64,000 nt of DNA from Squalus acanthias (lineage: Eukaryota). Positions within the stretch are counted from its first letter, which is position 1. Each line of letters begins with the position of its first letter. The translations under genes were made by a program, and so were the position numbers. The notes below the pieces were generated by a model, which was not told the origin of the DNA, made no database searches, and saw nothing but the letters and a program-made list of their open reading frames with translations. This document shows positions 1,638-49,317 of this stretch, one piece after another. The stretch spans positions 111,354,001-111,418,000 of the forward strand of contig CM059431.1 of assembly GCA_030390025.1 (NCBI GenBank), given 5' to 3'.

Positions 1638-2363
1638 TCAGTGGATATGTTCACTTACAGCCAATAGTAAAACTATACCCATAATGGTATGATTTGATCG
1701 TCCGCAGTCCACGGGGACTGGGTATGCTTCTGAAGCTAGCCTGAGCTGGCACGGGCTTAATGCGTTCTGAAAAGGGTGGAGCGCCCGCAGGTGTTTGTTA
1801 CTTATCCAGGACGGGACCAAACCTTGTTTTAAATCCTCCAAATTACTGCGGCCCTCGCCCAGTAACCACGCCCTGTAAAGCACGCACACCTCATTCTGCG
1901 CAGCTTGATCGGATGCATTCCGATCTTCCCTAATCAGGGCATTTACCGTTCTCGCGTGTTTCTCTAGTTCAGCTATAATTTCCTTTAAATGGAGAGTCAT
2001 GGCTTGGTCCTCATGTAACCCAGACCCAACCACCTTATTTTCATCTGTGAGAATGTCTTTTAATTGCGTTTTTAAGCCATTAATCTGGGTCTGCAGCTCC
2101 ACGCTGTCTAGAGCGTTGACCACAGATGTACCTGTGTTGAAAGCAGTGAACACGTCGTTCACAACACCCCTTCTTTGCCTCCCCACCTGATCCAAAACTT
2201 CATGTGGTGCGGTGTACAAACTTGTTTTATCAATTTCCGCGAAATCGAATTCGTAAAATTGTCTGAACATCTTGGTCAACAGGACCTGATATAACTGTTC
2301 CGTCTTTTTGGGGCACCACTCTGGTAACCGCACCTCGGTGAGATTTAAAATCACCGAGGCCAC
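1638..2363 (-). CDS. env: env 3' part: class I fusion protein (F2/F1-like), truncated before the TM anchor
   Basis: Furin site RQRR at 2169-2180, then fusion-peptide-like GVVNDVFTAFNTGTSVVNAL, heptad repeat (VELQTQINGLKTQLKDIL), Cys residues and N-glycosylation sequons. Joined to the upstream ORF by a 1-nt frameshift at 2375-2378. Confidence 0.75.
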   Translation of the reverse strand: MASVILNLTEVRLPEWCPKKTEQLYQVLLTKMFRQFYEFDFAEIDKTSLYTAPHEVLDQVGRQRRGVVNDVFTAFNTGTSVVNALDSVELQTQINGLKTQLKDILTDENKVVGSGLHEDQAMTLHLKEIIAELEKHARTVNALIREDRNASDQAAQNEVCVLYRAWLLGEGRSNLEDLKQGLVPSWISNKHLRALHPFQNALSPCQLRLASEAYPVPVDCGRSNHTIMGIVLLLAVSEHIH

Positions 2364-3157
2364 CGCGTAATGTACCCCTGAAATAGTATCTGGTCTGTGG
2401 GGACCAGTACCAAACCATTCCCGGGTCCCTTACTGGTTTTAGGGCACCCTTCTTCTTTAGCTAGAACCACCGGAATCGTGGGCGGGGCTTTGCGTGGGCG
2501 CGTAATGAGTTCAGTGGCATTTACTGGGATCGGGGAGAATGGGGCTCCGCACCCCCTGGTGCTCGCATCCCACCTCATCCCCTGTCCGTTATCCTGCCAT
2601 TGATTAATGAAAAATATGGAGATGCCTTTGGGGCAAACGTACTTTGACCCCCACATACATACATAAATTCCCTCATCCGGTTCCCACCATTTGTCCCAAC
2701 AGACTCTCACTTGTCCGTTTGTCCCCGTAATTGTCCGATGGGTATTATTACCCAGTCGTTCCCACTCGACCGAAGAGTTCCTCATGTTTTTGCTCAGCTT
2801 TCGCAGCCACCACCATCGGCTCAATGGGACATTCCCATTACAAGTCAAACAAATCCGTTTGCCGACGGTGACGCTGATCCTGGGTGCGATGATCCTTACT
2901 TTGGGGCACAGTAAAGAAGTCTCTTGGTAGGCAAAACCCGATGTGCTGGAATACTCCGTTGAGTTCGTTCCCAGCCATCCTGGCCACCTTCCCTTGTGGA
3001 AATAGGTGGTGGTCTCCTCAGCCTCTCGTCTTCCGGTCCCATCCACCGCGATGGGGGCCGTGTCCCCGGAGCATCCAAACACCACGACATCCTTGGTGCG
3101 GCCTCGATAGGCCAATCCGCATCCGATTGCCGCGAGCAATACTAGAATTCGTTCCAT
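2351..3157 (-). CDS. env: env 5' part: signal peptide plus Ig-like domain
   Basis: ATG at 3157 starts MERILVLLAAIGCGLA (signal peptide-like). Ig signature VGKRICLTC...WWW...DEGIYVC. Sequons NST, NSS, NNT, NAT. Confidence 0.7.
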   Translation of the reverse strand: MERILVLLAAIGCGLAYRGRTKDVVVFGCSGDTAPIAVDGTGRREAEETTTYFHKGRWPGWLGTNSTEYSSTSGFAYQETSLLCPKVRIIAPRISVTVGKRICLTCNGNVPLSRWWWLRKLSKNMRNSSVEWERLGNNTHRTITGTNGQVRVCWDKWWEPDEGIYVCMWGSKYVCPKGISIFFINQWQDNGQGMRWDASTRGCGAPFSPIPVNATELITRPRKAPPTIPVVLAKEEGCPKTSKGPGNGLVLVPTDQILFQGYITRWPR

Positions 3158-3170
3158 CCTTCCTTGGTTC

Positions 3171-3190
3171 CTGTGATCAGATAGAATGAG
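3171..3190 (-). promoter_or_regulatory. Candidate env splice acceptor
   Basis: The minus strand reads ctcattctatctgatcacAG|gaaccaaggaaggATG, placing the acceptor 13 nt before the signal-peptide ATG. Confidence 0.5.
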
Positions 3191-3456
3191 GTAGCCAGCC
3201 TCGCAAGAGTCTCTGGCTTTTGTGAAGGGTGAGCGGGTCCCCTGACCTCGCCTCACATAAGCTTCAATGTTCGCTGGATAAACTTTAACTAATCCTATCT
3301 CTAAAACTCCCATCATTTTACTTCCTTAAACAAAATTAAACTACCGACTTAAACCGATTTAAAACTATAAACTTGTTCTTAACCTTAAACTATAAACTTC
3401 GAAACTTATCCTAAACTTATTACTGTACAGCGCCGCCCGTTCCCAGGGCGGCCCCT

Positions 3457-6400
3457 TTAAATTCTGAAAAGGCTGCCACGAGCTCTTCCCGACGGTGGGA
3501 GGGCATTGACCCCTCCCTTTGATCTGCCGCAGCTTGTTGCTGCTGCGCTGGGACTGGGCTCTCCCTGGGCTGCCTTAGCCTTGAGCCTACGCCTTGGGAC
3601 AGTCTGGGGACTTGACCATATCTTCCTGGGCTGGGGTATCCGACCTGACCTACGGAGAGTTACCGGGGGCAAGAACTCCAGGACCGACGGACCGGGTTCC
3701 GAGACTTCCACCGTGGCGACCTGTGGTCCCGCCACAGTCGCTGGCTCTGCCTCCCCTGGCTCCGCCTCCCTGAACTCGGGATCTGCAGCTTGTGGCACCG
3801 CCCTACTCGGCCCAGTAGGCGGCCCTTCACTCGCAGTCCCTACCTCCCTCGAGGGCAAGACGTTCAAGGCGGGCGGCTCGGGCTCTGAGGCTTCCATCGC
3901 CACGCCCTGTGGTCCCACCACAGCGGCTGGCTCCGCCTCCCCTGGCTCCTCCCCCCTGCGTTTGGGACCTGCAGCTTCGGCTTCCACCCTGTGTGGATCT
4001 CTATCTGCAGCCCCTGTCCCCCCTATACCTGAATCGGGGGCGACCCTTTCGTCCTCCGATTCCAGCTCTTCCTCGTCACTATCTTCACTATCCTCACTTT
4101 CACTGTCTTCGTCGAGCTCCTTGAACTCACCCTCATCTGACTCCCAACCCCACAAAAATGTCTCACAATTTTCCAGGATGTCCCCTTCCCTGATGCAAGC
4201 TGCTTTGCCTGCCTGTGTGCCCTGTGGCCTTACCTGGGGCTGCGAGTCCCCACTCGCAGGTTTTGCCCCTGTGGTTGGCCCTTGTGCACCTGGCTTGTAC
4301 AGTTTGCACTGGTTTACATGGAACCACTTAGTGCGCCGAGGTACCTTTACGGCGTATACCATGGGACTCGCCTTATCTACAATGTTGTAGGGTCCCATAT
4401 ACAGTGGTTCCAGACTCCCTACTCTGGCGTAGTTTCTGACCATGACCTGGTCTCCTACTTCCCACTCCCGCGTTTTGCGGGGTTCCAGCAACAGGCGATT
4501 GCCCTGATGCTGCCTTCCCATGTTCCCAGCCGCCTGCTCATAAACCTGCTTCAGGCGCTCCAAGAGGGTCTGGGCGAACTTGTCCCTGTTTATCTCTTGG
4601 AGCTGACCCTCAGTGAGCACCGGCGCTAGCACATGGGTGGGGGTTCGCATGATCCTCCCAGTGGTCACCTCGTGCGGGGAATACCCCGTACTTTTCGACT
4701 GACTGGCCCGGACCCCCATGAGGACTAAAGGCAGAACCTCCGCCCATTTTTGGGGCGAGTTCATAGTCTCTTTCCTCAATTTCTCCTTCAGGGTCCGGTT
4801 CATGCGTTCAACAATCCCGGATGACTGGGGATTGTGTGCTACGTGCCATTTCCCTTCAATGCCCAAAAGCATGAGGGTGTTCTGCATCACCTGGCCGGTG
4901 AAATGACTCCCTTGGTCTGACTCCACAAAACGGGAAAGTCCCCACCGCGAGAACACCTCCCGGACCAAGATTTTTGCAGTACCCAGTGCCGTAGCTGTTC
5001 TACAGGGGAAGGCTTCCACCCATTTGGAAAACACATCCACCAAGACGAGGCAGTATTTATAGCCTCCCTGGGTGGTGGGCAGGGGCCCTATATAGTCGAT
5101 CTGTATCGACTGCCATGGTCCCTCTACCCTCCTGACGTGCCCCATGGGCACTTTCCTTTTCTGGGGGTCTGGGTTGTTTGCAGCGCACACGAGACAGCTT
5201 GCACAGAACTCGCGGACCTGTTCCCTGAGCCCCGGCCACCATCCCGCTTGCTCTACCCGTTGCCAGGTAACCTCGGGCCCGGGGTGCCCTGCCCCTGGTC
5301 CCTCGTGAGCCAACTGGAGGAATTCCCTCCTGTGCTGCTGCGGCACAACCCACTGCTCCTCGCGGAACAGCATGCCTTCCTTAACTGAGAGGGTTGCCGT
5401 ACTGTACGGACCCTCTACCTGCTTCCCCTCAGCAAGGGTTTTGAGGACCGCTTTTAGGGCGGGATCCTGGTTCTGGACGGTCTTAAGGTCTAGGGGCAAT
5501 GCTACCCTGGTGTTCCCGGGATTCCCGTCCCTGCCTTGGATCGCTGCCATGGGTCTGGGCCCATAGGGGTCCCAGAAAATGCCGTTGCGGGCACCTTCCC
5601 TGGCTAGCGCATCCGCCTGCTGGTTGCCCTCCCCACGGGGCTCTGTGGAGGAGTGAGCCTTCACCTTATGGATGAAAATCTCCCCTTCCTCCCCTACTGC
5701 TGCTAGGATCTTTTCCAGCAAGGGCTTCACTGTTAAAGGTCGCCTGTCCGCGGAGGTGTATCCACGGCGGGACCAAATGGCCAGGTATTCCGTACACGAA
5801 TTGCATGTGAACATACTGTCCGAGCAAATCGTGTATGGGGTTGGGAAAATTTCTGGGTGGGTAACGACGTACACCACTGCAGATAGCTCAGCCTGCTGCG
5901 CGCTCATGGTGCTAAGGAGCTTGATCGCCAGGGCAAGGTTTGCCGCAGGGTCATAAACTCCACACCCTGTGAGTCGTTCGCCAGCAGATACTGTGCTGGA
6001 ACCATCAACATAAATCTCGCGCCCAGTGGGATGTATCCCGGCCCGCAAACCTATGTTGACTTCCCACACCCCTTCCACCGAACACTGGTGGGCTGTACCG
6101 GGGTATACCAAATTGGCCGCAAGCCTGGGCTCGCAAAGACCTTTAACTCTAAGATCCATCTGGGAAAGAAGAAGGGTCCAGCGCGCAATAAGCGCGCTGC
6201 TTACGGTCCCATCTTTAATCCTCCCATCTAGAAGCATCTTAGTTGGTGTGTGATGGGTGAGGAGAGTGATGGGAGAGAGTCCTGTGAAGATCGCTGATCT
6301 TTTCACAGCCCAATGCGTGGCTAAAAGGTGCCTTTCGCAATTGGAGAAACTTCTCTCCACATCCGTTAACACCCTGGACGAATAGACAACCGGCCTCAGC

Positions 6401-7956
6401 TTGCCGTGACGCTCTTGGAGCAGCACAGCGCTCAAGCTGTCCCCGCTGGCAGCTACCTCCAGGAAAAACTCCTTCCCCCCATCTAAAGCTGGCGCGGTCT
6501 GCAGATCCCTTTTTAACTTCTCGAAGGCTGCTTGGCAGCCCTCGTCCCAAGACCACTCCACTCCCTTATGGAGGAGTCGGAGCAGCGGCGCCGCTGTGGC
6601 CGCATAGTCTTCGATAAAATCCCTGCAGTAACCGGTCAGTCCCAAAAAAGACCTCACACCCCTTATGGTGTTGGGAATCAGTAACTCTTGCACCGACTCC
6701 CTCCTAGCCTTATCTATGGCTCTTTCCCCAGCGCGAATGGTCAGCCCCAGGAATTTTACTTCCTGCTGACCGATACGTGCTTTCTTAGGGTTTACTTTAA
6801 AACCCTTTCTCGCTAGCAGCTCCAATAACTCGGCCAGCAGTGGTCCATGCTCCTCCCTTGAATCCGTAAATAGGAGCAAATCATCCACGTACTGCACTAT
6901 CTGATTGGGCTGACTAAACTCCTTTAAACTTCCTGCCATACACTGATGGAAAATACTGGGGCTGTTGTGGAAACCCTGTGGCAGACAGTTCCATGTGTAC
7001 TGTTGTCCTTTGAAAGTAAAGGCAAACTTGTACTGGTCCTCTCGCCGCAGCGGGATGGACCAAAAACCATTCGAGATATCCAGCACCGTGAACGTGGTCG
7101 CGGACGCTGGGATACTCCCTATTAGGTCAGCGACTGCTGCTACCGTGGGCGCGCAGGCGGGAATGTTACTGTTAAGGACTCTGTAGTCCACCGTGGCCCT
7201 CCACGAATTATCCGGCTTCCTAACCGGCCATAATGGGGAGTTCACGTGTGTGGCTATCGGCCTCAACACGCCCTGCTGCACCAAGGAGGACATTGCTGTC
7301 TCCATATCGGGTTCTGCTTCTTTGGGGAAGTTATACTGCTTTTGGGGCCGGGTCATGGGGTCCCCATCTACGCTGACCTCAAACCCGGTAACCCTCCCAC
7401 AATCGTGCTTGTGGGTTGCAAACGCGTGCATATTATCTGACACGTACGTTTGCATGTCCGTTGGGACATCCGCGACCATAAGCCCGAGATCGTAGCCTCC
7501 GGATGGCTTCATGGTACACAGGGTCCCTGTTCCTTCCTCCCCCGGAATTACCACTACCTCGCCGTCTCCACCCTTAGCCCCCCAGAGGCAGTGATTCCTG
7601 AGGTCCACGAGGATCCCGTGCCCTGATAGGAGATCGGACCCGAGGATACCTCTCCCACCCCCCTCATGCCATTTCATCAGTATGCACTTCCACGTGATGT
7701 GGAGTGTTCCTAAACGAATGGATAGCGGAAGGGAGAACGCGCCAGCCTGTTCTTTTCCCGTGAACCCCGCTAATGTGAATGGGACCTTGGTAGATAGCGG
7801 TGAGTCAAAAGGGCTATCTGTATGAATCACGGTGCAAGAAGCTCCCGTGTCCAACAAATAACTACCCTTCTGTTGCTCTACCTCCATCTCTACCAGGGGT
7901 CGCTTCCACGCATCATAGCTGAGCGGACACAGGTAGACGGGCTGCGCGGGCTCTAG
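3457..7956 (-). CDS. pol: Pol polyprotein: aspartic protease, RT, degenerate RNase H tether, RNase H, integrase with GPY motif, acidic/Pro-rich tail
   Basis: Protease LLDTGAS and GILGSD. RT LPQGF and YVDD (6880-6891). RNase H IYVDGSS/AQQAEL/SDS/HKVKAH/GNQQADALA. Integrase HHCC, IDY/SDQG/VERMN and MGPY. The frame stays open from the gag stop at 7957 to 3457. Confidence 0.95.
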   Translation of the reverse strand, partial: LEPAQPVYLCPLSYDAWKRPLVEMEVEQQKGSYLLDTGASCTVIHTDSPFDSPLSTKVPFTLAGFTGKEQAGAFSLPLSIRLGTLHITWKCILMKWHEGGGRGILGSDLLSGHGILVDLRNHCLWGAKGGDGEVVVIPGEEGTGTLCTMKPSGGYDLGLMVADVPTDMQTYVSDNMHAFATHKHDCGRVTGFEVSVDGDPMTRPQKQYNFPKEAEPDMETAMSSLVQQGVLRPIATHVNSPLWPVRKPDNSWRATVDYRVLNSNIPACAPTVAAVADLIGSIPASATTFTVLDISNGFWSIPLRREDQYKFAFTFKGQQYTWNCLPQGFHNSPSIFHQCMAGSLKEFSQPNQIVQYVDDLLLFTDSREEHGPLLAELLELLARKGFKVNPKKARIGQQEVKFLGLTIRAGERAIDKARRESVQELLIPNTIRGVRSFLGLTGYCRDFIEDYAATAAPLLRLLHKGVEWSWDEGCQAAFEKLKRDLQTAPALDGGKEFFLEVAASGDSLSAVLLQERHGKLRPVVYSSRVLTDVERSFSNCERHLLATHWAVKRSAIFTGLSPITLLTHHTPTKMLLDGRIKDGTVSSALIARWTLLLSQMDLRVKGLCEPRLAANLVYPGTAHQCSVEGVWEVNIGLRAGIHPTGREIYVDGSSTVSAGERLTGCGVYDPAANLALAIKLLSTMSAQQAELSAVVYVVTHPEIFPTPYTICSDSMFTCNSCTEYLAIWSRRGYTSADRRPLTVKPLLEKILAAVGEEGEIFIHKVKAHSSTEPRGEGNQQADALAREGARNGIFWDPYGPRPMAAIQGRDGNPGNTRVALPLDLKTVQNQDPALKAVLKTLAEGKQVEGPYSTATLSVKEGMLFREEQWVVPQQHRREFLQLAHEGPGAGHPGPEVTWQRVEQAGWWPGLREQVREFCASCLVCAANNPDPQKRKVPMGHVRRVEGPWQSIQIDYIGPLPTTQGGYKYCLVLVDVFSKWVEAFPCRTATALGTAKILVREVFSRWGLSRFVESDQGSHFTGQVMQNTLMLLGIEGKWHVAHNPQSSGIVERMNRTLKEKLRKETMNSPQKWAEVLPLVLMGVRASQSKSTGYSPHEVTTGRIMRTPTHVLAPVLTEGQLQEINRDKFAQTLLERLKQVYEQAAGNMGRQHQGNRLLLEPRKTREWEVGDQVMVRNYARVGSLEPLYMGPYNIVDKASPMVYAVKVPRRTKWFHVNQCKLYKPGAQGPTTGAKPASGDSQPQVRPQGTQAGKAACIREGDILENCETFLWGWESDEGEFKELDEDSESEDSEDSDEEELESEDERVAPDSGIGGTGAADRDPHRVEAEAAGPKRRGEEPGEAEPAAVVGPQGVAMEASEPEPPALNVLPSREVGTASEGPPTGPSRAVPQAADPEFREAEPGEAEPATVAGPQVATVEVSEPGPSVLEFLPPVTLRRSGRIPQPRKIWSSPQTVPRRRLKAKAAQGEPSPSAAATSCGRSKGGVNALPPSGRARGSLFRI

Positions 7957-9723
7957 TCATTGGGTACTATTAGACGGGGCTGTGGCACCTGCGGGGCCGG
8001 TAGCAACCGCCACCTTTCCATGCGCACTCATGAGGTTACGCATGGCTCCCAACACTGTTTCGATCGCGTCGGGATGGATGGGTGCACTAGCTTCCCTATC
8101 AGAGACAGGCGCCTGGGCTCGGGCTGCGGGATTTTTATCCCTGGAATCCTTCCAAGGGTTCCTGCAGTTCTTGCGCCAGTGCCCTGTCTTCCCACACCCG
8201 TAACAAGCATTACTGGCCTGCGGGGCGCGGTTACCCTCCTGATGCCACTCCTTTTGAGCCGGGGCTGCGGGTCGTGCCTCATGCACCTTTCCCTTAAGGG
8301 GACGTGCTCCCATACTTCTGGTATTACGGTACCCCACCGTGAGTCGATTTAGGACCGACTCCTCTGTAGTGGCGGGGTCAGTGGGATCAAACCACGCTTT
8401 TGCCTGCTCCCTGACGGCTGGCAAACTGTTGGTTACTATACACCTGAGCCAATGAGTTAAACCGATGTCTGCCACATCGGCGCGCTCTGGCGCACCTGGG
8501 CAGCTACGCTGGTATACTGGCCACAGCCTGTCGGCGAAAACCTTCGGGGGTTCTCCCTCCATCTGCACTGTCTGTCCCAGTCTAACAAACGGACCTTCAT
8601 CGTCCGCTCCCAATACTTCTAGGACCTCATTTCTTAGTGCCCCATAGGTCTTAGTTCCCCTCTTGCTCTCGTCTGAGAGACACTGAAGGATCGAACTACC
8701 TAATGAGAATAACAGCATCTTTGCTGTTTCCCCATCGTCGCAGCCGTTAATGGCTGCGGTTTGCTCTATTTCCCTAAAATGTACGGAAGGGTCGTCTGAC
8801 TCGGCCAGCTTCGGTACGTGACTGATCATAATCCTCAGCTGGTGTGAGCTGTGAGGCAACACAAGCTGGTTGAGGAGATCCCCTTGTTCCCCACCGTCTC
8901 TGTTTGGGCCCCTTTTGATACCCGTGACCGGACACAACGGTCCCGGTTCCACTTCTACCTCGGTGGGCTCTTTCGTTACTTCTACCACTTTCTCCCTTAC
9001 CCAGGTTTCCGAATAGCTGGTTGGCGCGGAGGGCATAGTGGCTAATACTTCCTCTGCTTTGTTCGGTGGGGATTTCTGAAATTCCTCATCCACTAGCGGC
9101 TGGTGTGCTGACGGACTGATAAGGCACACCATGCCGTGCGCTTTGTTCACGGCCCTTTTAAGGTGCTCTATCTCCTTTTGGCAGACGCTGTGATCGGCCC
9201 CCTGAAATTTATCCTCGAGGGCCATCTTATATGCCGCCCTAACCCCCGTTAAGCTCTCTTCCTGGGCTTTTATTTGGGCAGCTTGGCGGGCACATCGTTC
9301 CTTTAATCTGCCCTCACTTAACTTTGCCTCAGTGACCTGGCACTCGAGGTAATCTATTTTTGCTTTATGGTGGCTGGTGACTACCTGGCGTTCTTGATGC
9401 AACGCATTTAAATTCGTGATGAGCAGCTGCCCCCCCGTGACCTTCTCGTCCATTTCCACCTCTAAACGCCTGATCTGAGCTGCTTGCGCTGTGATGACCT
9501 GGTCCGAAATTTGGACATGTCTTTTATAGCACATCAGCCAGACCGCTTTCTCCACTGTCTTTTTATGTTCCTTGCTATCTGTCCACCTCTCGGCTGCCTC
9601 TAGTGGACACTTATCCACCAGCAGGTCACTTATCCATTTCTTAGTCAAATTTACTTTTCCGAACACATAATCTGCTATTCTCTCTTCCATGACATTTCGC
9701 CCAATCATACCAAAGTCTAACAC
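7957..9723 (-). CDS. gag: Gag polyprotein with N-terminal coiled coil, capsid-like region and one CCHC zinc knuckle
   Basis: 588-codon ORF between the PBS and pol, with CYGCGKTGHWRKNC and the MHR-like QMEGEPPKVFADRL. The start codon is uncertain. Confidence 0.9.
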   Translation of the reverse strand: MLDFGMIGRNVMEERIADYVFGKVNLTKKWISDLLVDKCPLEAAERWTDSKEHKKTVEKAVWLMCYKRHVQISDQVITAQAAQIRRLEVEMDEKVTGGQLLITNLNALHQERQVVTSHHKAKIDYLECQVTEAKLSEGRLKERCARQAAQIKAQEESLTGVRAAYKMALEDKFQGADHSVCQKEIEHLKRAVNKAHGMVCLISPSAHQPLVDEEFQKSPPNKAEEVLATMPSAPTSYSETWVREKVVEVTKEPTEVEVEPGPLCPVTGIKRGPNRDGGEQGDLLNQLVLPHSSHQLRIMISHVPKLAESDDPSVHFREIEQTAAINGCDDGETAKMLLFSLGSSILQCLSDESKRGTKTYGALRNEVLEVLGADDEGPFVRLGQTVQMEGEPPKVFADRLWPVYQRSCPGAPERADVADIGLTHWLRCIVTNSLPAVREQAKAWFDPTDPATTEESVLNRLTVGYRNTRSMGARPLKGKVHEARPAAPAQKEWHQEGNRAPQASNACYGCGKTGHWRKNCRNPWKDSRDKNPAARAQAPVSDREASAPIHPDAIETVLGAMRNLMSAHGKVAVATGPAGATAPSNSTQ

Positions 9724-9743
9724 ATTACCCTCTCGCTGTCAGT

Positions 9744-9761
9744 GTCCTGCCGCGGTCGCCA
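9744..9761 (-). promoter_or_regulatory. Primer binding site, tRNA-Arg(TCG)-type
   Basis: TGGCGACCGCGGCAGGAC lies 5 nt inside the LTR end. It is complementary to the 3' end of a vertebrate tRNA-Arg(TCG) as I recall it (...GTCCTGCCGCGGTCG-CCA). Confidence 0.8.
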
Positions 9762-9766
9762 TTTTC

Positions 9767-11420
9767 TGTAAGGGTTTTGACTTGTGTGTGGCTCTGTGCT
9801 CAGCCTGGGTGCTAGTGCGAGGTTAGGCCTTGTTGCCTGTTCTGGTCTCCAGCCAGTCTGGGAGCACTAGACACCTGTGAGTGGTTCGACCCACTCGCCC
9901 TTACGGTTCTGACACTGGACTTAGATGCGAGAGCAATAATGGAGAGAAAACTCAGGTAGACCCGGTTGAATGGTACGAAATGGAAAATCTTTATTGCATA
10001 TTATTCAAGATTACGAAATACATGTCATAAGCACAGATTAATGACAGTACAATCTTACACGCAGTTATGTAACTAATTTTAGGGAAACGAGGAACGAACG
10101 ACACATCGTAAATGGGGGCACACATTACAGTTATCCTTAAAACTTAATCCCTCCCCTATCAATACCTGCTCTAAACTAGATTTGTAGGATCGAGACTCAT
10201 GCTCACCACTCGTGATAACTCGGAGAATTCCGAAAATTCTGCTCGGATGTTTTTACCGCAGTACCTGATCACCCACGTGTTGATCAGGGGTCTCTGTACC
10301 CCACTTGTTTACTCGTTTCTGCTCCGGCTAGCAGGCTGGACCGTCTGCTGTCATGAAGATCTGTGTTGTCCTCGGAGTTCCGACACTACTCAAAAAAAGA
10401 GTCTTCCTGTGCCCTCGCCCTGATGCGATAAAACTCGAAGAATAGTCTTCCGATGCCAGTTCTGTAAAGCTCAAAAGATAGTCTTCCTGGGCAAGGAAAG
10501 TGTCTATTCGACCTACAGGCGTGGTCGGGGCTTACTGACCGTGGCGATACGTATGGTCGTCTTCTTCTCTTCTCATCTCATCTCATCTCATCTCATCTCG
10601 GGCCTTTGGTCCCAACACCGTTTACCGACTTCTCGGGATGGTGTGCCCGTTTCAAGGCTTCACAGCCCAGTTCCACACAGATCTTCGCGGCAAGCCACGA
10701 GGCTGATCCTGGCGGATCAGAAAGTTCGATAGTCTTTAAGAGCTGCAAGAGGCAGAGGCACAATGCAAGCGGCAAGAGGCAGGAGAATAAGAGAGAGATG
10801 GACAGTTGTAGCTTACAGTTATAGTGCTGAAACTCTTCTTTTCCCGCCCAACCTTAATGTCTTTTCTTTTGTTAGGGTTTTGGCGCTCAAACTTCTTGTA
10901 TAGGGTGATCTCCGTTTTAATGGGTTTCGGGGATACTCGTAACTGTCTGAGTACCTGTTAATACTTTTCCCAATGTGTAACCGGTCGGTATTCTCCCTGG
11001 AGGGGTTTTGGGGCTTCCAAATGTTTTCTGTAACTACCCGCAAACGGCTCTCTCATCGTAGAGTCGTGGGGATTTTGCATATTAATGTCTTTGGATGGGT
11101 TCTTGATCGCTTGGTACAATAGCCCTTATTCGCACCTGGGAGACCGATTTCAGTATTTATGTGTATACTGCAAAATGTCTTGTGTATTATCTCAAATGTG
11201 CTGAGTCTTGATCGATCTCGCACAAATGTTTATTGGAACGCCATCTTGTCTGCTTATCGAAAGGTCTAGAATGTTCTGCCACGAGGCGTGGCGGCCATTT
11301 TACAGGCTGCTTGTGTCCACTTTGAAAACCTGACAGCATTCTGCTGAAATAAAGCTGTTTGAACGAAATTATGTGTTTTCTCCTTATTTATAAAATCGTG
11401 ATTATATTGCGAATTCTACA
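9767..11420 (-). repeat. 5' LTR (1654 bp)
   Basis: Starts TGTAG and ends CCCTTACA next to the PBS, with AATAAA at 9990-9995. Both ends match the TSD-bounded solo LTR at 32142-33795. Confidence 0.85.
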
Positions 11421-11514
11421 GTAATAAACACATATTTTAATATAGAAGACATGGGGTGTAGCAAATCTGCAACAATAAATGTGTGCCTCCTCCACTGTGT
11501 GTAATTTATGATGT

Positions 11515-18882: not shown

Positions 18883-20332
18883 CTATCAGTGCAGATATTT
18901 AGTCAAAGCATGAATCTGTAGTTCAATAAGTAGTGCTGTCACTAGGCTTATTTAGTGTATTGCTATCAATAAGTTATGCGGGAAAAAATGACACTGAAGC
19001 TCAACGCTCTTTCATGTTGTGCAAAAAAAACTTCATTGCTAATGTGATGCTCTTAATTGATTGGCTTAAATTGCTTCCATCAGCAGTGACAACCGAACTT
19101 CGCCCTCGTGTTATACAGTCCAGAATTCTCGCTCCAGACACAATCCGTGTTTGGATGGATTGAATCTATAACTGAGCTCTGAGGAGTTTTTAACAGTTCA
19201 AGATAGCACGAAAATTTCACACACCCACCATTATATTTGACTGAAATCCTAGTGACAATAACACATAACTGTTTGTCAAATCTAACTGGAAAACAGAGGC
19301 GTAACACGACAGGTGAATGTTTTGGGGGAATTCGTCATCAAGCTATGCGTGAAATGGATTTTTATCCCTGAGCAGAATTAAATCAGTCGCATAAATCAGG
19401 TAGCGTCTTGAGCTGCGATTAGTCAGCTGTTGGAAACTGAGTAGGTGGATAACAGAGCGATGACATAGCTCATGTTGATGGATAGGTGGCTGTTTTATAA
19501 ATGAAAATGTGTCTTTATCTGATTATTGTAGGGTGAACAGTTAGCGGCAGCGGTGGTTTGGGTTCAGCTACAGCTCCTTGATTTGTTTGCTTGCACACTG
19601 CAAATTGGGATACGAATGCGATTCTGCCTTCGCCACAGTGGCTGCCCACATTTTCCACTGGTTGACCAACCTGGCAGAATCACTCGGAATTCGTTTAATA
19701 CGTGGGTGAATTGAACGTCATCATACTTTGTCAAATAGCTGCCGTGTTTTTGGCTTGGGATTGCGTGGCACCCCAATGGGAACATTTCACCGAAACCAGA
19801 AAGAGACGTTTGCATGTGGCCAACAATAGAGTTTTTTTTTAAAAAATCGGGGGTTATTTTGGTGAAAGGGTGAGCGCAGACACTCAATGGGTGCTGAGCT
19901 AATAAGACACGCCTGTTTGAAAGTCTGGTTTTAGCACGCAATTTTGGGGCTAATTGATCATTACCGTGATTTAAACGCGCCTGCAGATGCTAAAACCTGC
20001 ACGTTTAGTGCTCAAGTGCTGATTAGAAGCAGTTTTCGTGGCGCGATATATGTAGCTGAAGGTGTGGAGTGCGCTGGCTGGCGCACAGCGGCACGTTGCA
20101 GGATGGCTCAGGCACCGAGAGAGAGGGCGCCCAGGTTCTCCGACGCGCCGCTGGAGATCCGGGTGGAGGAGGTCCAGAGGAGGAGGGATGTCCTGTGCCC
20201 GCAGGGGAGAAGCAGGCCCCAGAGGCAGCTAATGCGGCGCATATGGGAGGAGATCGCCCAGGAAAAAAGAAAGACTTGCATTTATATAGCACCTTTCACG
20301 ACCACCGGATGTCTCAAAGTGCTTTACAGCCA

Positions 20333-22431
20333 ATGAATTTGTTCATCCCTGTTTGGCATAAAAATAAAACAAAAAAGGTGACTCAACCGTGGCTAACAAG
20401 GGAAATTAGGGATAGTATAAGATCCAAGGAGAGGACATATAAATTGGCCAGAAAAAGCAGCAAACCTGAGGATTGGGAGCAGTTTAGGATTCAGCAAAGG
20501 AGGACAAAGGGATTAATTAAGAGGGGGAAAATAGAATATGAGAGTAAACTTGCAGGGAACATAAAAACTGACTGTAAAAGCTTCTATAGATATGTGAAGA
20601 GAAAAAGATTGGTGAAGTCAAGTGTAGGTCCCTTGCAGTAAGAATCAGGGGAATTTATAATGGGGAACAAAGAAATGGCTGACGAATTAAATACATACTT
20701 TGGTTCTGTCTTCACAAAGGAGGACACAAATAAACTCCCAGAGATGTCAGGGAACATAGGGTCTAATGAAAGGGAGGAATTGAATGAAATCACTATTTGT
20801 AGGGAAATGGTGTTAGGGAAATTGACGGGATTGAAGGCCGATAAATCCCCAGGGCCTGATAATCTACATCCTAGGGTACTTAAGGAAGTGGCCCTAGAAA
20901 TAGTAGATGCATTGCTGGTCATCTTTCAAAATTCTATAGACTCTGGAACAGTTCCCATGGATTGGAGGGTAGCTAATGTAACCCCACTATTTAAAAAAGG
21001 TGGTAGAGAAAAAACAGGGGAATTATAGACCGGTAAGCCTGACATCGGTAGTGGGCAAAATGCTAGAGTCCATTATAAAAGATGTAATAGCAGAGCACTT
21101 GGAAAACAGTGACAGGATCGGACAAAGTCAACATGGATTTACAAAAGTGAAATCATGCCTGACTAATCTACTGGAATTTTTTGAGGATGTAACTGGTAGA
21201 ATAGATAAGGGAGAAACAGTGGATGTGGTGTATTTGGACTTTCAGAAGGCTTTCGATAAGGTCCCGCATAAGAGATTGGCGTGCAAAGTTAAAGCAGATG
21301 GGATTGGGGGTGAGGTACTGATTTGGATAGAGAACTGGTTGGCAGACAGGAAGCAAAAAGTTGGAATAAACGGGTCTTTTTCCGAGTGGCAGGCAGTGAC
21401 TAGTGGGGTACCACAGGGATCGGTGCTAGGACCCCAGCCATTCACAATATATATTAATGATCTAGACGAGGGAACTAGATGTAATATCTCTAAGTTTGCA
21501 GATGGCACAAAGCTGGGTGGGCGTGTGTGCTATGAGGAGGATGCAGAGAAACTCCAGTATGATTTGGACAGGTTGGGTGATTGGGCAGATGCATGGCAGA
21601 TGCAGTACAATGTGGATAAATGCGAGGTTATCCACTTTGGTGGCAAAAACAGGAAGACAGATTACTTTCTGAACGGCAATAGATTGGGAAAAGGGGAAGT
21701 GCAACGAGATCTGGGAGTCCTTGTGCACCAGTCGCTGAAGGTAAGCATGCAGGTGCAGCAGGCGGTTAAGAAGGCAAATGGTATGTTGGCCTTCATAGCG
21801 AGAGGATTCGAGTACAGGAGCAAGGATGTCTTGCTGCAGTTGTACAAGGCCTTGGTGAGACCACACCTTGAGTATTGTGTGCAGTTTTGGTCGCCTTATC
21901 TGAGGAAGGATGTTCTTGCCATGGAGGGAGTGCAGCGAAGATTTACCAGACTGATACCTGGGATGGCAGGAATGACGTATGAAGAGAGATTGGGTAGATT
22001 AGGCTTATATTCGCTAGAGTTTCGAAGAATGAGAGGGGATCTCATTGAAACTTATAAAATTCTAACAGGACTAGACAGACTAGATGCAGGAAGGCTGTTC
22101 CCGATGGCGGGGGAGTCCAGAACCAGGGGTCACAGTCTAAGGATAAGGGGTAAGCCATTTAGGACTGAGATGAGGAGGAATTTCTTCACCCAGAGAGTGG
22201 TGAACCTGTGGAATTCTCTACCACAGAAGGCAGTTGAGGCCAATTCATTAAATATATTCAAGAAGGAGATAGATATATTTCTTAAGGCTAAAGGGATCAA
22301 GGGATATGGGGAGAAAGCAGGGACAGGTTACTGAATTTGGATGATCAGTCATGATCTCATTAAATGGCGGAGCAAGCTCGAGGGGCCGAATGGCCTACTC
22401 CTGCTCCTATCTTCTATGCTTCTATGCTTCT
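20333..22431 (+). mobile_element. 5'-truncated CR1 LINE (RT region)
   Basis: ORF 21000-22334 has YLDFQKAFDKV, GVPQGSVLGP and KFADG (FADD altered). Tail ctatgcttctatgcttctat. Confidence 0.95.
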
Positions 22432-43904: not shown

Positions 43905-44855
43905 ATGGCAGGAGAGCTCAGCGCCGTGATATGCTCCTCTTGCTATATGTGGGAAATCAGGGACGCTTCCTGTATCCCTGACGACCATGTGTGTGGGAAA
44001 TGTATCCAGCTGCAGCTACTGACGGACCGCATTGCGGCGCTGGAGCTGCGGATGGATGCATATTGGAGCATTCGCGACACTGAGAATGTTGTGGATAACA
44101 CGTTTAGCGAGTTGGTCACACCGCGGGTAAAGGGTGTACAGGCAGGAAGTGAATGGGTGTCCACCAGGCAGAGTAAGAGGTGCAGGCAGGTAGTGCAGGG
44201 GTCCCCTGTGGCCATCCCCCTCTCAAACAGATATACCACTTTGGATGCTGTTGGGGGGGATGACTTATCAGGGGAAGGCGGCAGCAGCCAACTTCCTGGC
44301 ACCATGGGTGGCTCTGCTGCACAGGCTGGGAGGAAAAAGTGTGGAAGAGCTATAGTGATAGGGGATTCAATTGTAAGGGGAATAGATAAGCGTTTCTGCG
44401 GCCGCAAACGAGACTCCAGGATGGTGTGTTGCCTCCCTGGTGCAAGGGTCAAGGACGTCTCAGAGCGGCTACAGAACATTTTGGAGGGGGAGGGCGAACA
44501 GCCAGTTGTCGTGGTGCACATAGGCATCAACGATATAGGTAAAAAACAGGATGAGGTCCTAAAAGCAGAATATAGGGGGTTAGGAGGTAAATTAGAAAAG
44601 AGGACCTCAAAGGTAGTAATCTCAGGATTGCTACCAGTGCCACGTGCTAGTCAGAGTAGAAATAGGAGGATATTTCAAATGAATACGTGGCTAGAGGAAT
44701 GGTGCAAGGGGGAGGGATTCAAATTCCTTGGACATTGGAACCGGTTCTGGGGGAGGTGGGACCAGTACAAACGGGACGGTCTGCACCTGGGCAGGGCCGG
44801 GACCGATGTCCTAGGGGGAGTGTTTGCTAGTGCTGTTGGGGAGGGTTTAAACTAA
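43905..44855 (+). CDS. CR1 ORF1p: zinc finger/leucine zipper plus SGNH esterase
   Basis: CSSC...CGKC, leucine heptad, IVIGDS, HIGINDI and DGLHL in an intact 316-aa ORF. Confidence 0.9.
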   Translation: MAGELSAVICSSCYMWEIRDASCIPDDHVCGKCIQLQLLTDRIAALELRMDAYWSIRDTENVVDNTFSELVTPRVKGVQAGSEWVSTRQSKRCRQVVQGSPVAIPLSNRYTTLDAVGGDDLSGEGGSSQLPGTMGGSAAQAGRKKCGRAIVIGDSIVRGIDKRFCGRKRDSRMVCCLPGARVKDVSERLQNILEGEGEQPVVVVHIGINDIGKKQDEVLKAEYRGLGGKLEKRTSKVVISGLLPVPRASQSRNRRIFQMNTWLEEWCKGEGFKFLGHWNRFWGRWDQYKRDGLHLGRAGTDVLGGVFASAVGEGLN

Positions 44856-45039
44856 AGTGGCAGGGGGTTGGGAACCTGAGCAGGGAGACAGAGGAAAGGG
44901 AAACAAGGATAAAAGCTAAAGACAGGAAGGAGAAAAACAAAAGTAGAAGGCAAAGAACTCAACGGTTTAAATCAAACATGGTCACAGTAAATAATAATTC
45001 ATATAGGTCTGAGAGTGTTAAAAAAACAAGCCTGAAGGC

Positions 45040-47838
45040 TTGTGTCTTAATGCAAGGAGCATTCGGAACAAGGTGGATGAATTAGCTGCGCAAATAGAGG
45101 TAAATGAATACGATTTGATTGGGATTACAGAAACATGGCTCCAGGGTGGCCAAGGCTGGGAACTCAACATCCAGGGTTATTCAATATTTAGGAAAGATAG
45201 GCAAAAAAGAAAGGGAGGTGGGGTAGCATTGCTGGTTAAAGAGGGGATTAACACAATTGAAAGGAAGGATATTAGCTCTGATGATGCGGAATCTGTATGG
45301 GTAGAACTGAGAAATAACAAGGGGCAGAAAACATTAGTGGGAGTGGTATATAGACCTCCAAACAGTAATACGGAGGTTGGGGACGGCATTTAAAGGGAAA
45401 TTAGAGAAGCATGCAGTAAGGGCACAGCAGTCATCATGGGGGACTTTAATTTACATATAGATTGGGCTAACCAAATTAGTAAAAATACTGTGGAGGAGGA
45501 ATTCCTAGAATGTTTACGAGATGGCTTTCTGGAACAATATGTCGAGGAACCAACCAGAGATCAGGCCATCTTAGACTGGATATTATGTAACGAGAAAGGA
45601 TTAATTAGCAATCTTGTTGCACGAGGCCCCTTGGGTCAGAGTGATCATAATATGATAGAATTCTTCATTAGGATGGAGAGTGAAGTAGTTGAATCAGAGA
45701 CAAGGGTCCTGAATTTAAATAAAGGAAACTACGATGGTATGAGGCGCGAATTGGGTAGGATTGATTGGGGAATGTCACTCAAGGGATTGACGGTGGATAG
45801 GCAATGGCAAACATTCAAAGACTGCATGGATGAACTACAGAATTTGTTCATCCCAGTGTGACATAAGAATAAAACAAAAAGGGTGATTCAACCGTGGCTA
45901 ACAAGGGAAATTAGGGATAGCATAAGATCCAAGGAGAGGGCATATAAATTGGCCAGAAAAAGCGGTAGTCCTGCGGATTGGGAGCAGTTTAGGATTCAAC
46001 AAAGGAGGACAAAGGGATTAATTAAGAAGGGGAAAATAGAATATGAGAGTATGCTTGCTGGGAACATAAACACTGACTGTAAGAGCTTTTATAGATATGT
46101 GAAGAGAAAAAGATTAGTGAAATCAAGTGTAGGTCCCTTGAAGTCAGAAGCGGGGGAAGTTATAATGGGGAACAAAGAAATGGCAGACCAATTAAATGCA
46201 TATTTTGGTTCTGTCTTCACAAAGAAGGACACAAATAACCTCCCAGAGATGTTGGAGAACATACGGTCTGATGAAAGGGAGGAACTGAAAGAAATCAGTA
46301 TTTGCAGGGAAATGGTGTTAGGGAAATTGACGGGATTGAAGGCTGATAAATCCCCAGGGCCTGATAATCTACATCCTAGGGTACTTAAGAAAGTGGCCCT
46401 AGAAATAGTAGATGCATTGCTGATCATCTTCCAACATTCGATGGAATCTGGAACTGCACCCATGGATTGGAGGGTAGCTAATGTTACCCCACTATTCAAA
46501 AAGGGTGGTAGAGAGAAAGCGGGGAATTACAGACTGGTAAGCCTGACATCGGTATTGGGGAAAATGCTAGAGTCCATTATAAAGGATGTAATAGCTGAGC
46601 ACTTGAAAAGCAGTGACAGGATCGGACAAAGTCAACATGGATTTACAAAAGGTAAATCGTGCTTGACTAATCTACTGTAATTTTTTGAGGATGTAACTGG
46701 GAAAATAGATAAGGGAGAACCAGTAGATGTGGTGTATTTGGACTTTCAAAAGGCTTTCGATAAGGTCCCGCATAAGAGATTAGCGTGTAAAGTTAAGGCA
46801 CATGGGATTGGGGGCAAGGTATTGACTTGGATAGAGAACTGGTTGGTGGACAGAAAGCAGAGAGTAGGAATTAATGGGTCTTTTTCCGAGTGGCAAGCAG
46901 TGACTAGTGGGGTACCGCAGGGATCGGTCCTTGGACCCCAGCTATTCACAATATACATTAATGATCTAGATAAGGGAACTAAATGTAATATCTCCAAGTT
47001 TGCAGATGACACAAAGCTGGGTGGGAGTGTGTGCTGCGAGGAGGATACCGAGAAACTTCAGGATGATTTGGACAGGTTGGGTGAGTGGGCAGAAGCGTGG
47101 CAGATGCAATATAACGTGGATAAGTGCGAGGTTATCCACTTTGGTGTCAAAAACAGAAAGGCAGACTATTATCTGAATGGCAATAGATTGGGAGAAGGGG
47201 AAGTGCAACGAAACCTGGGTGTCCTTGTGCACCAGTCGCTGAAAGTAAGCATGCAGGTGCAGCAGACGGTGAAGAAGGCAAATGGTATGTTGGCCTTCAT
47301 AGCGAAAGGGTTTGAGTATAGGAACAGGGATGTCCTGCTGCAGTTGTACAGGGCCTTGGTGAGACCACACCTTGAGTACTGTGTGCAGTTTTGGTCGCCT
47401 TATCTGAGGAAGGATGTTCTTGCCATGGAAGGAGTTCAGCGAAGATTCACAAGGCTGATACCTGGGATGGCAGGAATGACATATGAGGAGAGATTGGGTC
47501 GATTGGGCTTATACTCGCTGGAGTATAGAAGAATGAGAGGGGATCTCATCGAAACATATAAAATTCTGACAGGTCTGGACAAACTAGATGCAGGAAGAAT
47601 GTTCCCGATGGTCGGAGAGTCCAGAACCAGGGGTCATAATCTAAGGATAACGGGTAAGCCATTTAGGACAGAAATGAGGAAGAATTTCTTCACCCAGAGA
47701 GTGGTGAACCTGTGGAATTCTCTACCACAGAAGGTAGTTGAGGCCAAGTCATTAAATATATGCAAGAATGAGTTAGATATATTTCTTAAAGCTAAAGGTA
47801 TCAAGGGATATGGGGAGAAGGCAGGTACAGGGTACTGA
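45040..47838 (+). pseudogene. CR1 ORF2 (APE endonuclease plus RT) with premature stops
   Basis: NARSI, GITETW, MGDFN, SDHN, YLDFQKAFD, PQGSVLGP and FADD. Stops at ~45393, 45861 and 46680. Confidence 0.9.
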
Positions 47839-49317
47839 GTTTGGATGATCAGCCATGATCTCATCGAATGGCGGAGCAGGCTCGAGGGGCCGAATGGCCT
47901 ACTCCTGCTCCTATCTTCTATGTTTCTATGTTTCTAGGGAAGTGGCTTTGAGACCAAGATCAGCCATGATCTTATTGAATGGCGGAGCAGGCTCGTGGGG
48001 CCAAGTGGCCTACTCCTGCTCCTATTTCTTATGTTCTGCTGGATGTAAAAGCAGTGGGAGAAATGGGTCGCTTCATGTGCCGCCAGGCACGGAAGAGAAG
48101 AAGAAGAGAAGATGTGTGCTACAGAAACATTTATTCGGTTCAAGTTGTCTTACACAGCTATGTGTAGAATGGATCTGCCGAGCTGGCCTAGTTATGTACA
48201 TTGCAGAGAGTGCTTCCGACATAGCATATGGTCTGGCTTTACTGATTAATAATCTCCTTGTCGGCTTTTGATTTATCCGATTGTATCCAGCACTCCATCT
48301 GAACTTGGTAACAGAACAGAGCAAGAGTCAAGCCAGAGGCAAATTTGCCTTTGTTAAAGTAGCATCAGTGTTAATAATGATTAGAAATTTCTGTCCAGTT
48401 TATCTTATTAAGATTAATCAATTGCTGTGCATGACTCTGAACTAAGTGCTTCTGCCTCTGGTGGGCACTAATCTGATTGAATAAAAACACATGCAATTTG
48501 AGAAAATGCTCATTGAATATTAAAAGACTCAGAAGTGAAAATGCTCTTTTTTATTTTGCATTCTAAAACAACTCCAGAGGAGCTCAGTATAGAAGTCTTT
48601 ATCTGAACTGCTAACACTGAATCATTAATTCCGGGGGCTGAGCCCTTAAGAATACCTAGTGTATTGGAATGCCAATTCACATATATGCCGCCCATCAGCA
48701 TTTTATGCTGATTTTAGCATTTTGAGGCCCAGCCAATATAAGCACAGGTAGGCCCCTCTTCACTGAGATATTTTCTCCTCCCGAATCTGACGACTAAAGC
48801 ACCCGAACAGGTCCAGGTCTGCTCTCAGTGGAGTGCCGCTCCCAGCGCTAATGGCCAGGACTGCGAGCTCTGCATACTTTTGTCAGGAACTCTCATGACA
48901 TTAATGAGCATGGCACTAATTTTAGGCAGGAGTAGGCAGGGTGAAATGGATGACAACTGAAAGGGAGATGAGAGAATGAAGTAGTGAAAGGGAAGGAGGA
49001 GAATAGATGTCAGTGAAAAGGGAGGGGAGAACGGATGGTAGTTAAAGCACAAAGACTGCAATGGTTCAAAGAGATGACCCACCATCTCCTTCTTGACGGA
49101 ACTAGGGATGGTCATAAAGGTGGGGGGTAATTTTAACCTACCCGGCCCAGTGAGAAACTGATAAGAACAGATCGGCCGCCCGTTTTACATGCTGCAGGTT
49201 TTACTTTCCTTTGACTACAATGGATTTATTTCCACCAGTACGAGTTGTCATCGGATAACTCCCCTCAGTGGCCATTCAACATGCGTGAGGCTGGACAGTG
49301 AGCATTGCCAGCTTATT

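Follow-up and report, generated by a model that had tools for sequence, protein, structure and literature searches.

The subject of this study is a retroviral envelope (Env) protein encoded in a 64,000-nucleotide stretch of the Squalus acanthias genome (assembly GCA_030390025.1, contig CM059431.1, positions 111,354,001 to 111,418,000; the window). Its env gene lies on the minus strand, downstream of pol in a provirus. We favour the reading that its product belongs to the F-type class I fusion proteins, as known from paramyxo- and pneumoviruses, is cut once, at the sequence RQRR, and carries an old and selected immunoglobulin (Ig)-like module at its N terminus as receptor binder. The anatomy of this Env, its F fold, the constraint on the module and the absence of the module from lokiretrovirus Env proteins are established here, and an Ig-type fold of residues 85-186 is likely.

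The env frame of the window copy runs from a Met at position 3157. As conservation between subfamilies of the element does not extend upstream of it, this Met is the likely start of env, and Env most likely comprises the 783 amino acids counted from it in full-length natural copies. The signal peptide (MERILVLLAAIGCGLA, residues 1-16, 3110..3157), as read from the sequence, is followed by a pre-Ig segment (residues 17-85, 2903..3109) with Cys29, Cys84 and one N-glycosylation sequon, for which AlphaFold2 (AF2) gives low confidence. The Ig-like domain (residues 86-186, 2600..2902) has a B-strand Cys106, a C-strand Trp115-117 and an F-strand DxGxYxC with Cys167; its signature reads GKRICLTC at 2840-2863, WWWLRK at 2798-2815 and DEGIYVC at 2657-2677, all on the minus strand. 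N-glycosylation sequons in or beside the module are found at residues 65, 127 and 137. A linker (residues 187-245, 2423..2599), the least constrained part of Env, holds the basic motif RPRK (2489-2500) and leads into an F2-like segment beginning GNGLVL (residues 246-326, 2181..2422, read across a frameshift), which has two long strands and a helix. Then come the furin-type site RQRR (residues 327-330, 2169..2180), a fusion peptide of small residues (331-351, 2106..2168) aligning with the post-cleavage segment of relatives, and heptad repeat A (HRA, residues ~352-445, 1824..2105), modelled by AF2 as helices 350-373 and 383-444. The start of the F head domains (1664..1823) is cut off at 1664, where homology to the family stops. 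Thus, the order of features claimed in the original prediction, from signal peptide to heptad repeat, is present throughout, including the two Ig cysteines 61 residues apart. Of the stretch 1638..3157 named there as env, the frame from 3157 stands, but the part beyond 1664 is flanking sequence.

Full-length Env readings were taken from unaltered natural copies, and the window copy was left unmended. A search for full-length copies with a membrane anchor was successful: natural copies have a transmembrane segment at residues 731-753. For one of these (P0003), the complete Env was modelled by AF2 with alignment A1, which consists of 24 rows of Env relatives. The mean predicted local distance difference test score (pLDDT) of this model was 57, with values of 70-91 at residues 240-310 and 420-650. 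Its F2-like part consists of strands 249-260 and 263-272 and helix 284-306 (pLDDT 78-90); the helices of the 350-444 region follow the fusion peptide, and a further helix (679-715) lies near the transmembrane segment. A Foldseek search of the PDB with this model yielded 228 matches at E <= 0.001, the best being F of human parainfluenza virus 3 (1ztm, E 4.9e-11), and all rows listed were F proteins of paramyxo- or pneumoviruses. In 49 of 50 rows the VIA alignments to F start at model residue 243-245, corresponding to F residue 23-38. The paramyxo/pneumovirus F fold proposed for the C-terminal two thirds was therefore what AF2 and Foldseek returned. The model contains the three-domain F fold built from both subunits, and the sequence keeps the F-type order of furin site, hydrophobic fusion peptide directly after it, HRA, and heptad repeat B (HRB) beside the transmembrane segment. 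According to this model, residues 244 to about 720 are predicted to form a complete F scaffold, followed by the transmembrane segment and a tail of 30 amino acids, and residues 17-243 are an N-terminal extension placed before it.

At the sequence level, the A1 profile matched the Env structures of foamy viruses (8ozh, E 2.8e-5; 8rm1, E 1.3e-4; 8rm0, E 7.7e-4), the match to 8ozh covering part of the transmembrane subunit. Foamy Env was absent among the matches listed by Foldseek and VIA for the full model, from which we draw no inference. The best matches of the Env model in BFVD were arthropod mononegavirus glycoproteins, baculovirus F and paramyxovirus F0. A phmmer search of the PDB with the F-like part as a single sequence gave coiled-coil noise only. 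In Pfam, 13 of 14 relatives had no F-family match at E <= 0.1, and one matched Baculo_F at E 0.0011. As had been noted from the window copy, the motifs CX6CC and CKS-17 of ordinary retroviral transmembrane subunits are missing; neither CX6CC nor the CKS-17-like LQN[RK][RK] occurs even in a full-length natural copy, and the transmembrane subunit is not of the gamma type.

The Ig-type fold of the N-terminal module, which the original prediction had assumed, is indicated by several lines of evidence, each of them weak and none decisive alone, that all agree. The module shows the motif of the Ig superfamily, that is two Cys 55-75 residues apart, a C-strand Trp and DxGxYxC. When the six frames of the window were scanned with a loose regular expression for it (C..W..[DE]x[GAS]xYxC, no stops), this was the only place hit, by two overlapping matches, and each of 20 mononucleotide shuffles gave none. 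The Cys pair, the Trp and DxGxYxC are kept in all seven close relatives that were cut out. In Pfam, the window copy matched Ig_3 at E 0.086 with 13.8 bits, against a cut-off of 30, so that the Pfam threshold for Ig was not reached; among relatives, Ig_3 matched P0012 (E 0.0085) and V-set matched P0037 (E 0.045), the best relative reaching 17 bits. All 12 PDB matches of the module in phmmer were Ig domains (E 0.33-1.2). When neighbours were ranked by ESM features, the ten best family-bearing ones of residues 78-190 all belonged to Ig families (listed scores 0.89-0.91), and the corresponding segment of a frog relative also had Ig families as neighbours (0.82-0.84). UniRef names the Chiloscyllium (shark) relative P0015 'Ig-like domain-containing protein', which is an automatic label.

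An AF2 model of residues 1-251 of the window Env, based on an N-terminal alignment of 18 rows, had a mean pLDDT of 42, rising to 51-66 over residues 101-170, and shows strands resembling B, C, D, E, F and G. The rows listed by Foldseek for this model were, judged from their titles, antibody V domains or CD8; the best E-value was 1.1e-3, so that none fell at or below 0.001, and the TM-scores normalised by target were 0.5-0.59. The N-terminal profile found a single-chain antibody fragment as its best match in the PDB (9nfu, E 0.0086), which we keep as a lead only. This match aligns the pre-Ig segment (2903-3109) with the F strand, third complementarity-determining region and G strand of the heavy-chain variable domain, and the start of the Ig-like domain with the start of the light-chain variable domain. 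AF2 puts strands from residues ~23-39 into the sandwich. The pre-Ig segment could be the remnant of a second V-type domain, or the resemblance could be due to chance.

Alternatively it might be that the N-terminal domain is a viral beta-sandwich that does not descend from the Ig superfamily, its motif reflecting convergence or an over-read weak resemblance. This explanation would account for sequence-based E-values that all lie above 0.001 and for AF2 models of low confidence. Ig-like sandwiches are very common, and the receptor-binding domain (RBD) of gammaretroviruses has an Ig-like sandwich core without Ig sequence motifs. However, two Cys, Trp and DxGxYxC at canonical spacing, preserved in all seven close relatives, are not easily explained in this way, and every independent method put Ig domains first and ranked nothing else. 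We therefore regard a sandwich of other descent as unlikely, although it is the strongest of the competing explanations.

Comparison of subfamilies within the dogfish genome shows that the Ig-like module is under purifying selection. The ratio of nonsynonymous to synonymous substitution rates (dN/dS) between subfamilies was 0.08-0.10 for the module (residues 85-186; dS saturated) and 0.08 for the F core, while the pre-Ig segment (residues 17-84) had values of 0.14-0.26 and the linker (residues 187-237) of 0.39-0.55. At the amino-acid level, the subfamilies are 56-75% identical in the module and 82-85% in the F1 part, where one pair spans F1 (L021 vs L035). Since dS is saturated between subfamilies of the same genome and dN/dS of the module is about 0.1, the module predates the divergence of the subfamilies.

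This Env has relatives in sharks, rays and frogs. Among 1.84 billion representatives searched, 51 relatives were obtained at E <= 0.001; these correspond to pieces or to complete copies of this Env, in part embedded in chimeric gene models, and five are full-length or nearly so (two from sharks, two from frogs and one from a Logan contig). In four of five distant full-length relatives, which are about 20% identical, a C...W...C or V-set-like segment stands just upstream of CP..GP..GL, the start of the F2-like part; the pattern is degenerate in the fifth (P0014). No host Ig gene as such was among the named or aligned matches of the 51, which makes a recent capture unlikely. The module is thus probably an old, selected part of an Env lineage common to the shark, ray and frog relatives and not a recent pick-up. 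It is possible that a capture took place long ago, at the base of the clade formed by the shark and frog relatives. The more specific idea, that a retrovirus lineage of sharks, rays and frogs long ago fused a cellular Ig-superfamily domain to the N terminus of an F-type Env as its receptor binder, is tentative, and we would not rate it as probable.

Concerning function, the Env precursor would trimerise and be cut by furin once, at RQRR. The N-terminal subunit would consist of the Ig-like module and the F2-like part; as the latter is a component of the fusion scaffold, this subunit would remain attached to the trimer. From the membrane-distal periphery the module would bind a cell-surface receptor, thereby filling the role of the separate attachment protein of paramyxoviruses or of the inserted RBD of foamy viruses. 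Receptor binding, or low pH, would then release the refolding of HRA and HRB, leading to the merger of the membranes.

RQRR is the only R-x-[KR]-R in the Env ectodomain. Five of the eight scanned relatives that have a match carry R-x-[KR]-R shortly before the fusion peptide, and most rows of A1 have a basic site in the RQRR column. The original prediction had additionally considered a release of the module at RPRK. This motif ends in Lys and is followed by Pro, and it is replaced by RPRI or RPRT in skate relatives and by YTRK in another subfamily. A conserved cleavage site at RPRK, and with it a release of the module there, is accordingly not supported by these alignments, and RQRR is left as the sole consensus. 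Two frog relatives (P0022 and P0054) carry an extra N-terminal furin consensus, REKR at residue 62 and RNKR at residue 25. In P0022 this site comes after an N-terminal stretch of about 24 residues and a hydrophobic segment, an arrangement reminiscent of the foamy leader peptide. No such N-terminal furin site was seen in the shark copies.

The module might also be Ig-like without binding a receptor. It would then cap or shield the F head, either stabilising the prefusion form or hiding it from antibody, and entry would depend on another Env segment or on pH alone. Such a role would fit the pH dependence of foamy-virus Env fusion (PMC11468914, as far as its accessible text goes), the constraint that also acts on the pre-Ig segment (residues 17-84), and the three sequons in or beside the module. 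Against it stands the lack of any other candidate attachment gene in the element, in which only about 450 bases separate the env stop from the 3' long terminal repeat (LTR). Furthermore, the lower identity in the module than in F1 is in keeping with a surface that changes along with a receptor or antibodies. We consider a purely protective role improbable, somewhat more so than a sandwich of non-Ig descent. Hardly tenable, finally, is the recent capture of a host Ig-superfamily exon whose product, cleaved off Env at RPRK, would modulate immunity in soluble form or at the surface. In its favour, GxxIxLTC, W and DxGxYxC resemble a cellular V/I-set domain, the domain is absent from all 22 published lokiretrovirus Env N-termini, and endogenous retroviruses (ERVs) can take up Ig-superfamily genes, as CrocERV31 did with nectin3 (PMC4299795, in part). 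Against it speak the lack of a host Ig gene among the named or aligned matches, the saturated dS combined with the low dN/dS of the domain, the Ig-type segment that distant Envs of sharks and frogs have in this position, and the RPRK site itself, which lacks a P1 Arg. The word 'captured' of the original prediction is therefore not supported in this sense.

Several points weigh against the preferred explanation, the F-type fusogen with an old Ig-like receptor-binding module. The Ig fold rests on AF2 models of low confidence and on scores below threshold, and the alignments behind them are shallow (24 and 18 rows). Neither the window pieces nor the full copy had a match to Pfam Fusion_gly (PF00523) at E <= 10. 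The alignments by HMMER to the distant shark and frog relatives begin only at residue 221-237, and hhalign of the shark against the frog N-terminal segments gave E 0.18 and a probability below 1% over 90 columns. When the shark group, two frog proteins and individual proteins from sharks or Logan were compared with one another by hhalign, probabilities were at most 2.3% (E 0.02-0.57), and with such low scores the homology of the modules across the clade is unproven. Moreover, receptor binding, trimer formation, the single cleavage and the trigger are all steps that we infer.

F-type Env proteins of retroviruses are known from foamy viruses, whose structures date from 2024, and, by sequence, from lokiretroviruses, and how F-type fusogens acquire receptor binding is an open question that the present Env addresses. 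In the accessible part of the foamy Env study, F is regarded as the minimal class Ib scaffold, which takes up receptor-binding modules at its N terminus, as in the coronavirus spike, or between its subunits, as in foamy Env (PMC11468914). Compared to paramyxo- and pneumovirus F (PF00523), the present Env shares the fold without a PF00523 sequence match and has a 227-residue N-terminal extension with an Ig-like domain ahead of the scaffold. Furthermore, it is encoded by a retrovirus, and unlike in paramyxoviruses no separate attachment protein is encoded beside it.

Foamy Env (gp130) likewise combines, in a retrovirus, an F-type (class Ib) core with a receptor-binding module of its own (PMC11468914), and its structures (8ozh, 8rm0, 8rm1) are the only solved family reached by our profile through sequence. 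However, the foamy RBD lies between the two subunits as an insertion and is, in the accessible text, not described as Ig (PMC11468914), whereas here the module lies at the N terminus. Instead of a leader peptide with a second furin site, as in foamy Env, there is a plain signal peptide with no R-x-[KR]-R after it.

The Env proteins of lokiretroviruses are likewise F-type, with signal peptide, RxKR, fusion peptide, coiled coil and transmembrane segment (PMC7947760, seen in part, as for all statements on this source). Their mature N terminus, GPxxG[IVA], resembles GPGNGL at residues 244-249 of our Env by eye. The supplement of that paper contains 23 consensus Env proteins, 22 with an N terminus and one C-terminal fragment. 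In all 22, the signal peptide reaches GPxxG[IVA] within about 10 residues, and RxKR follows some 90-105 residues further on. This leaves no room for an Ig domain, which answers the question, raised in the original prediction, whether published lokiretrovirus Envs already carry it. In the dogfish Env, 227 residues intervene instead of a signal peptide running straight into the F2-like part. The correspondence of GPxxG[IVA] with GPGNGL suggests that the module is an addition relative to lokiretrovirus Env. The main text of the lokiretrovirus paper contains neither 'immunoglobulin' nor 'cartilaginous' nor 'shark', and cartilaginous fish are not among the hosts listed in it (PMC7947760).

The coronavirus spike is comparable in arrangement only, as its class Ib core bears receptor-binding modules N-terminally (PMC11468914). 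A torovirus S and two spike proteins were among the BFVD matches to our Env model. The spike is far larger than this Env, and no relatedness of the modules is implied; the N-terminal domains of coronavirus spikes have other folds. Predicted structures of epsilonretrovirus Envs were also among the best BFVD matches: walleye epidermal hyperplasia virus 1 (WEHV-1) at rank 5 (E 2.3e-12) and walleye dermal sarcoma virus (WDSV) at rank 21 (E 3.1e-9). These proteins are longer (1317 and 1159 amino acids, respectively) and are likened to ours by predicted structure alone. This hints that epsilonretrovirus Env may be F-type as well. The literature examined, as far as accessible, distinguishes the Env of epsilonretroviruses from the gamma and beta types, and none of it calls this Env F-like.

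A further ERV that carries an Ig-superfamily protein, nectin3, is CrocERV31. There, according to the accessible part of the report, a whole host gene replaces env (PMC4299795), whereas the present env joins one Ig-like domain in frame to the fusogen, and no host source is detectable for it. In the literature searched, which leaves subscription journals largely outside, we found no Ig-like domain described for a retroviral Env of the F type.

The Env described here would add a third solution within retroviruses, namely an Ig-like module placed N-terminally of the F scaffold. If the ancient fusion outlined above took place, this would be the first retroviral case of the layout with an N-terminal module on an F scaffold known from coronavirus spikes. 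Many natural copies and diverged subfamilies within one genome offer material on the evolution of the module. The protein furthermore offers access to the env genes of ERVs from sharks and frogs, which are poorly described and in which earlier surveys found no Env domains, and to the deep links that connect the fusion proteins of retroviruses, paramyxoviruses and coronaviruses.

The provirus is a defective copy of a recently amplified, high-copy ERV of a cartilaginous fish. It spans 11422..1664 on the minus strand in the order 5' LTR, candidate primer-binding site, gag, pol and env, which bears out the placement of a retroviral env downstream of pol. The 5' LTR (9767..11422, about 1.65 kb) contains two blocks with 96-98% identity to the 3' LTR region of the natural full copy L021. 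Five bases past its end, a candidate primer-binding site beginning with TGG (TGGCGACC, 9744..9761) was read from the sequence. The gag gene (7957..9708), taken from the list of open reading frames, has a coiled-coil-rich N-terminal part and one CCHC zinc knuckle (Pfam zf-CCHC, residues 511-526, E 0.0014) and ends in TGA. The pol gene (3457..7956) encodes protease, reverse transcriptase (RT), tether, RNase H and integrase with a GPY motif, followed by an acidic, repeat-bearing tail of about 280 amino acids; Pfam matches were RVT_1 (1.2e-35), RNase_H (8.5e-20), RT_RNaseH_2 and RT_RNaseH (tether), Integrase_H2C2 and rve.

Both genes are in one frame with one TGA between them, a layout typical of readthrough. 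The gag stop TGA (7957-7959) is followed by CTA, with pol running on in frame; UGA-CUA is a known readthrough context. The pol tail after the GPY region (3457-4300) is rich in Pro, Glu and Ala and holds two copies of a 141-nucleotide direct repeat (3664-3804 and 3850-3990, 75% identity); in another subfamily the tail is much shorter. No leader-to-env joint was seen in contigs from four runs; as the RNA label of these is a guess, this is no evidence either way.

The window copy is dead twice over. In a short homopolymer at about 2375-2378, env differs by one base in length from the open copies, as seen in a blastn comparison with L021 (97.5% identity), and this shifts the frame. In addition, similarity to the family stops abruptly at 1664, the 26 bases from there to the stop being flank, so that Env is missing from residue 498 on, that is most of head domains I-III, HRB, the transmembrane anchor and the tail. 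The 3' LTR is lacking together with the 3' third of env, and neither was found within 20 kb beyond the window start. Since the flank beside the break (1050-1663) is single copy, the break is a truncation and not the insertion of another repeat. A short old repeat lies at 900-1050.

The affiliation of the virus is less clear from pol, which scored similarly against the solved structures of Ty3 (231 bits), foamy protease-RT (221) and the RT of xenotropic murine leukemia virus-related virus (218), values that do not discriminate; among the matches listed, prototype foamy virus had the best-scoring integrase. An assignment to the lokiretroviruses appears doubtful because their Env lacks the Ig domain and their RT motif differs by eye, LPQGFHNSP here compared to LPFGYINAG in the frog rows Loki-Xtr, Loki-Xla and Loki-Npa. 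Spumaviruses make Pol from its own mRNA and not as a Gag-Pol fusion; here gag and pol share a frame around a single TGA. Spumavirus Gag, according to the part of the source available, has no Cys-His boxes (PMC4299795), whereas the present Gag has a zf-CCHC match. No Pfam foamy Env match was found for the window pieces or the full copy. Four features speak against a true spumavirus: Gag has a CCHC knuckle, pol follows gag in frame after a TGA, accessory genes are missing, and Env has no leader peptide. The host range of sharks, rays and frogs fits two published groups, each known to us from part of the source: the shark-frog foamy-like clade CmiFLERV/XtrFLERV, of which only pol was found (PMC5512871), and the epsilon-like ERVs known from sharks and amphibians (PMC4977317). 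The in-frame gag-stop-pol and the Foldseek matches to the WEHV-1 and WDSV Env models are indirect hints of an epsilonretrovirus-like (class I) ERV. Epsilonretroviruses make Pol by stop-codon readthrough, their context being listed, in the accessible part of the source, as UAG-R and that of gammaretroviruses as UAG-G (PMC3542737); the context here is TGA-C.

In the 3.7-Gb genome, the N-terminal 268 residues of Env gave 8351 first-look candidates, at least 143 of which were scored as matches with 96-100% identity. The env frame was open for at least 815 codons in 89 of the 143, although five of these 89 also list a stop inside the match, and all three natural copies examined with their flanks have an env frame of 836 codons. 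The virus may therefore have been infectious in the very recent past, and an exogenous form could still be in circulation. Other subfamilies are numerous, too (150 scored matches among 5830 candidates); they are 53-60% identical to P0012, a JGI fragment of the N-terminal part, and 43-65% identical to the window copy over Env residues 17-237. A second homologue search, with the Env alignment, yielded no further distant relatives; the 11 proteins found were all closely related and from chondrichthyans.

The public shark gene models P0005, P0006, P0042 and P0133 join env or pol fragments to host genes (Niban 1-like, ZFP2-like, an F-box protein and a lysophosphatidylcholine symporter) and look like annotation chimeras. 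Elsewhere in the window, positions 20001-22000 and 44001-48000 show a strong positive GC skew (0.30-0.33) together with an AT skew, unlike the rest. The 30-amino-acid Env tail of the full copy (L021:2350-2440, minus strand), which the window copy has lost, contains YVRV and ends in ESTV, which has the form of a class I PDZ-binding motif; the Env of a skate relative ends differently.

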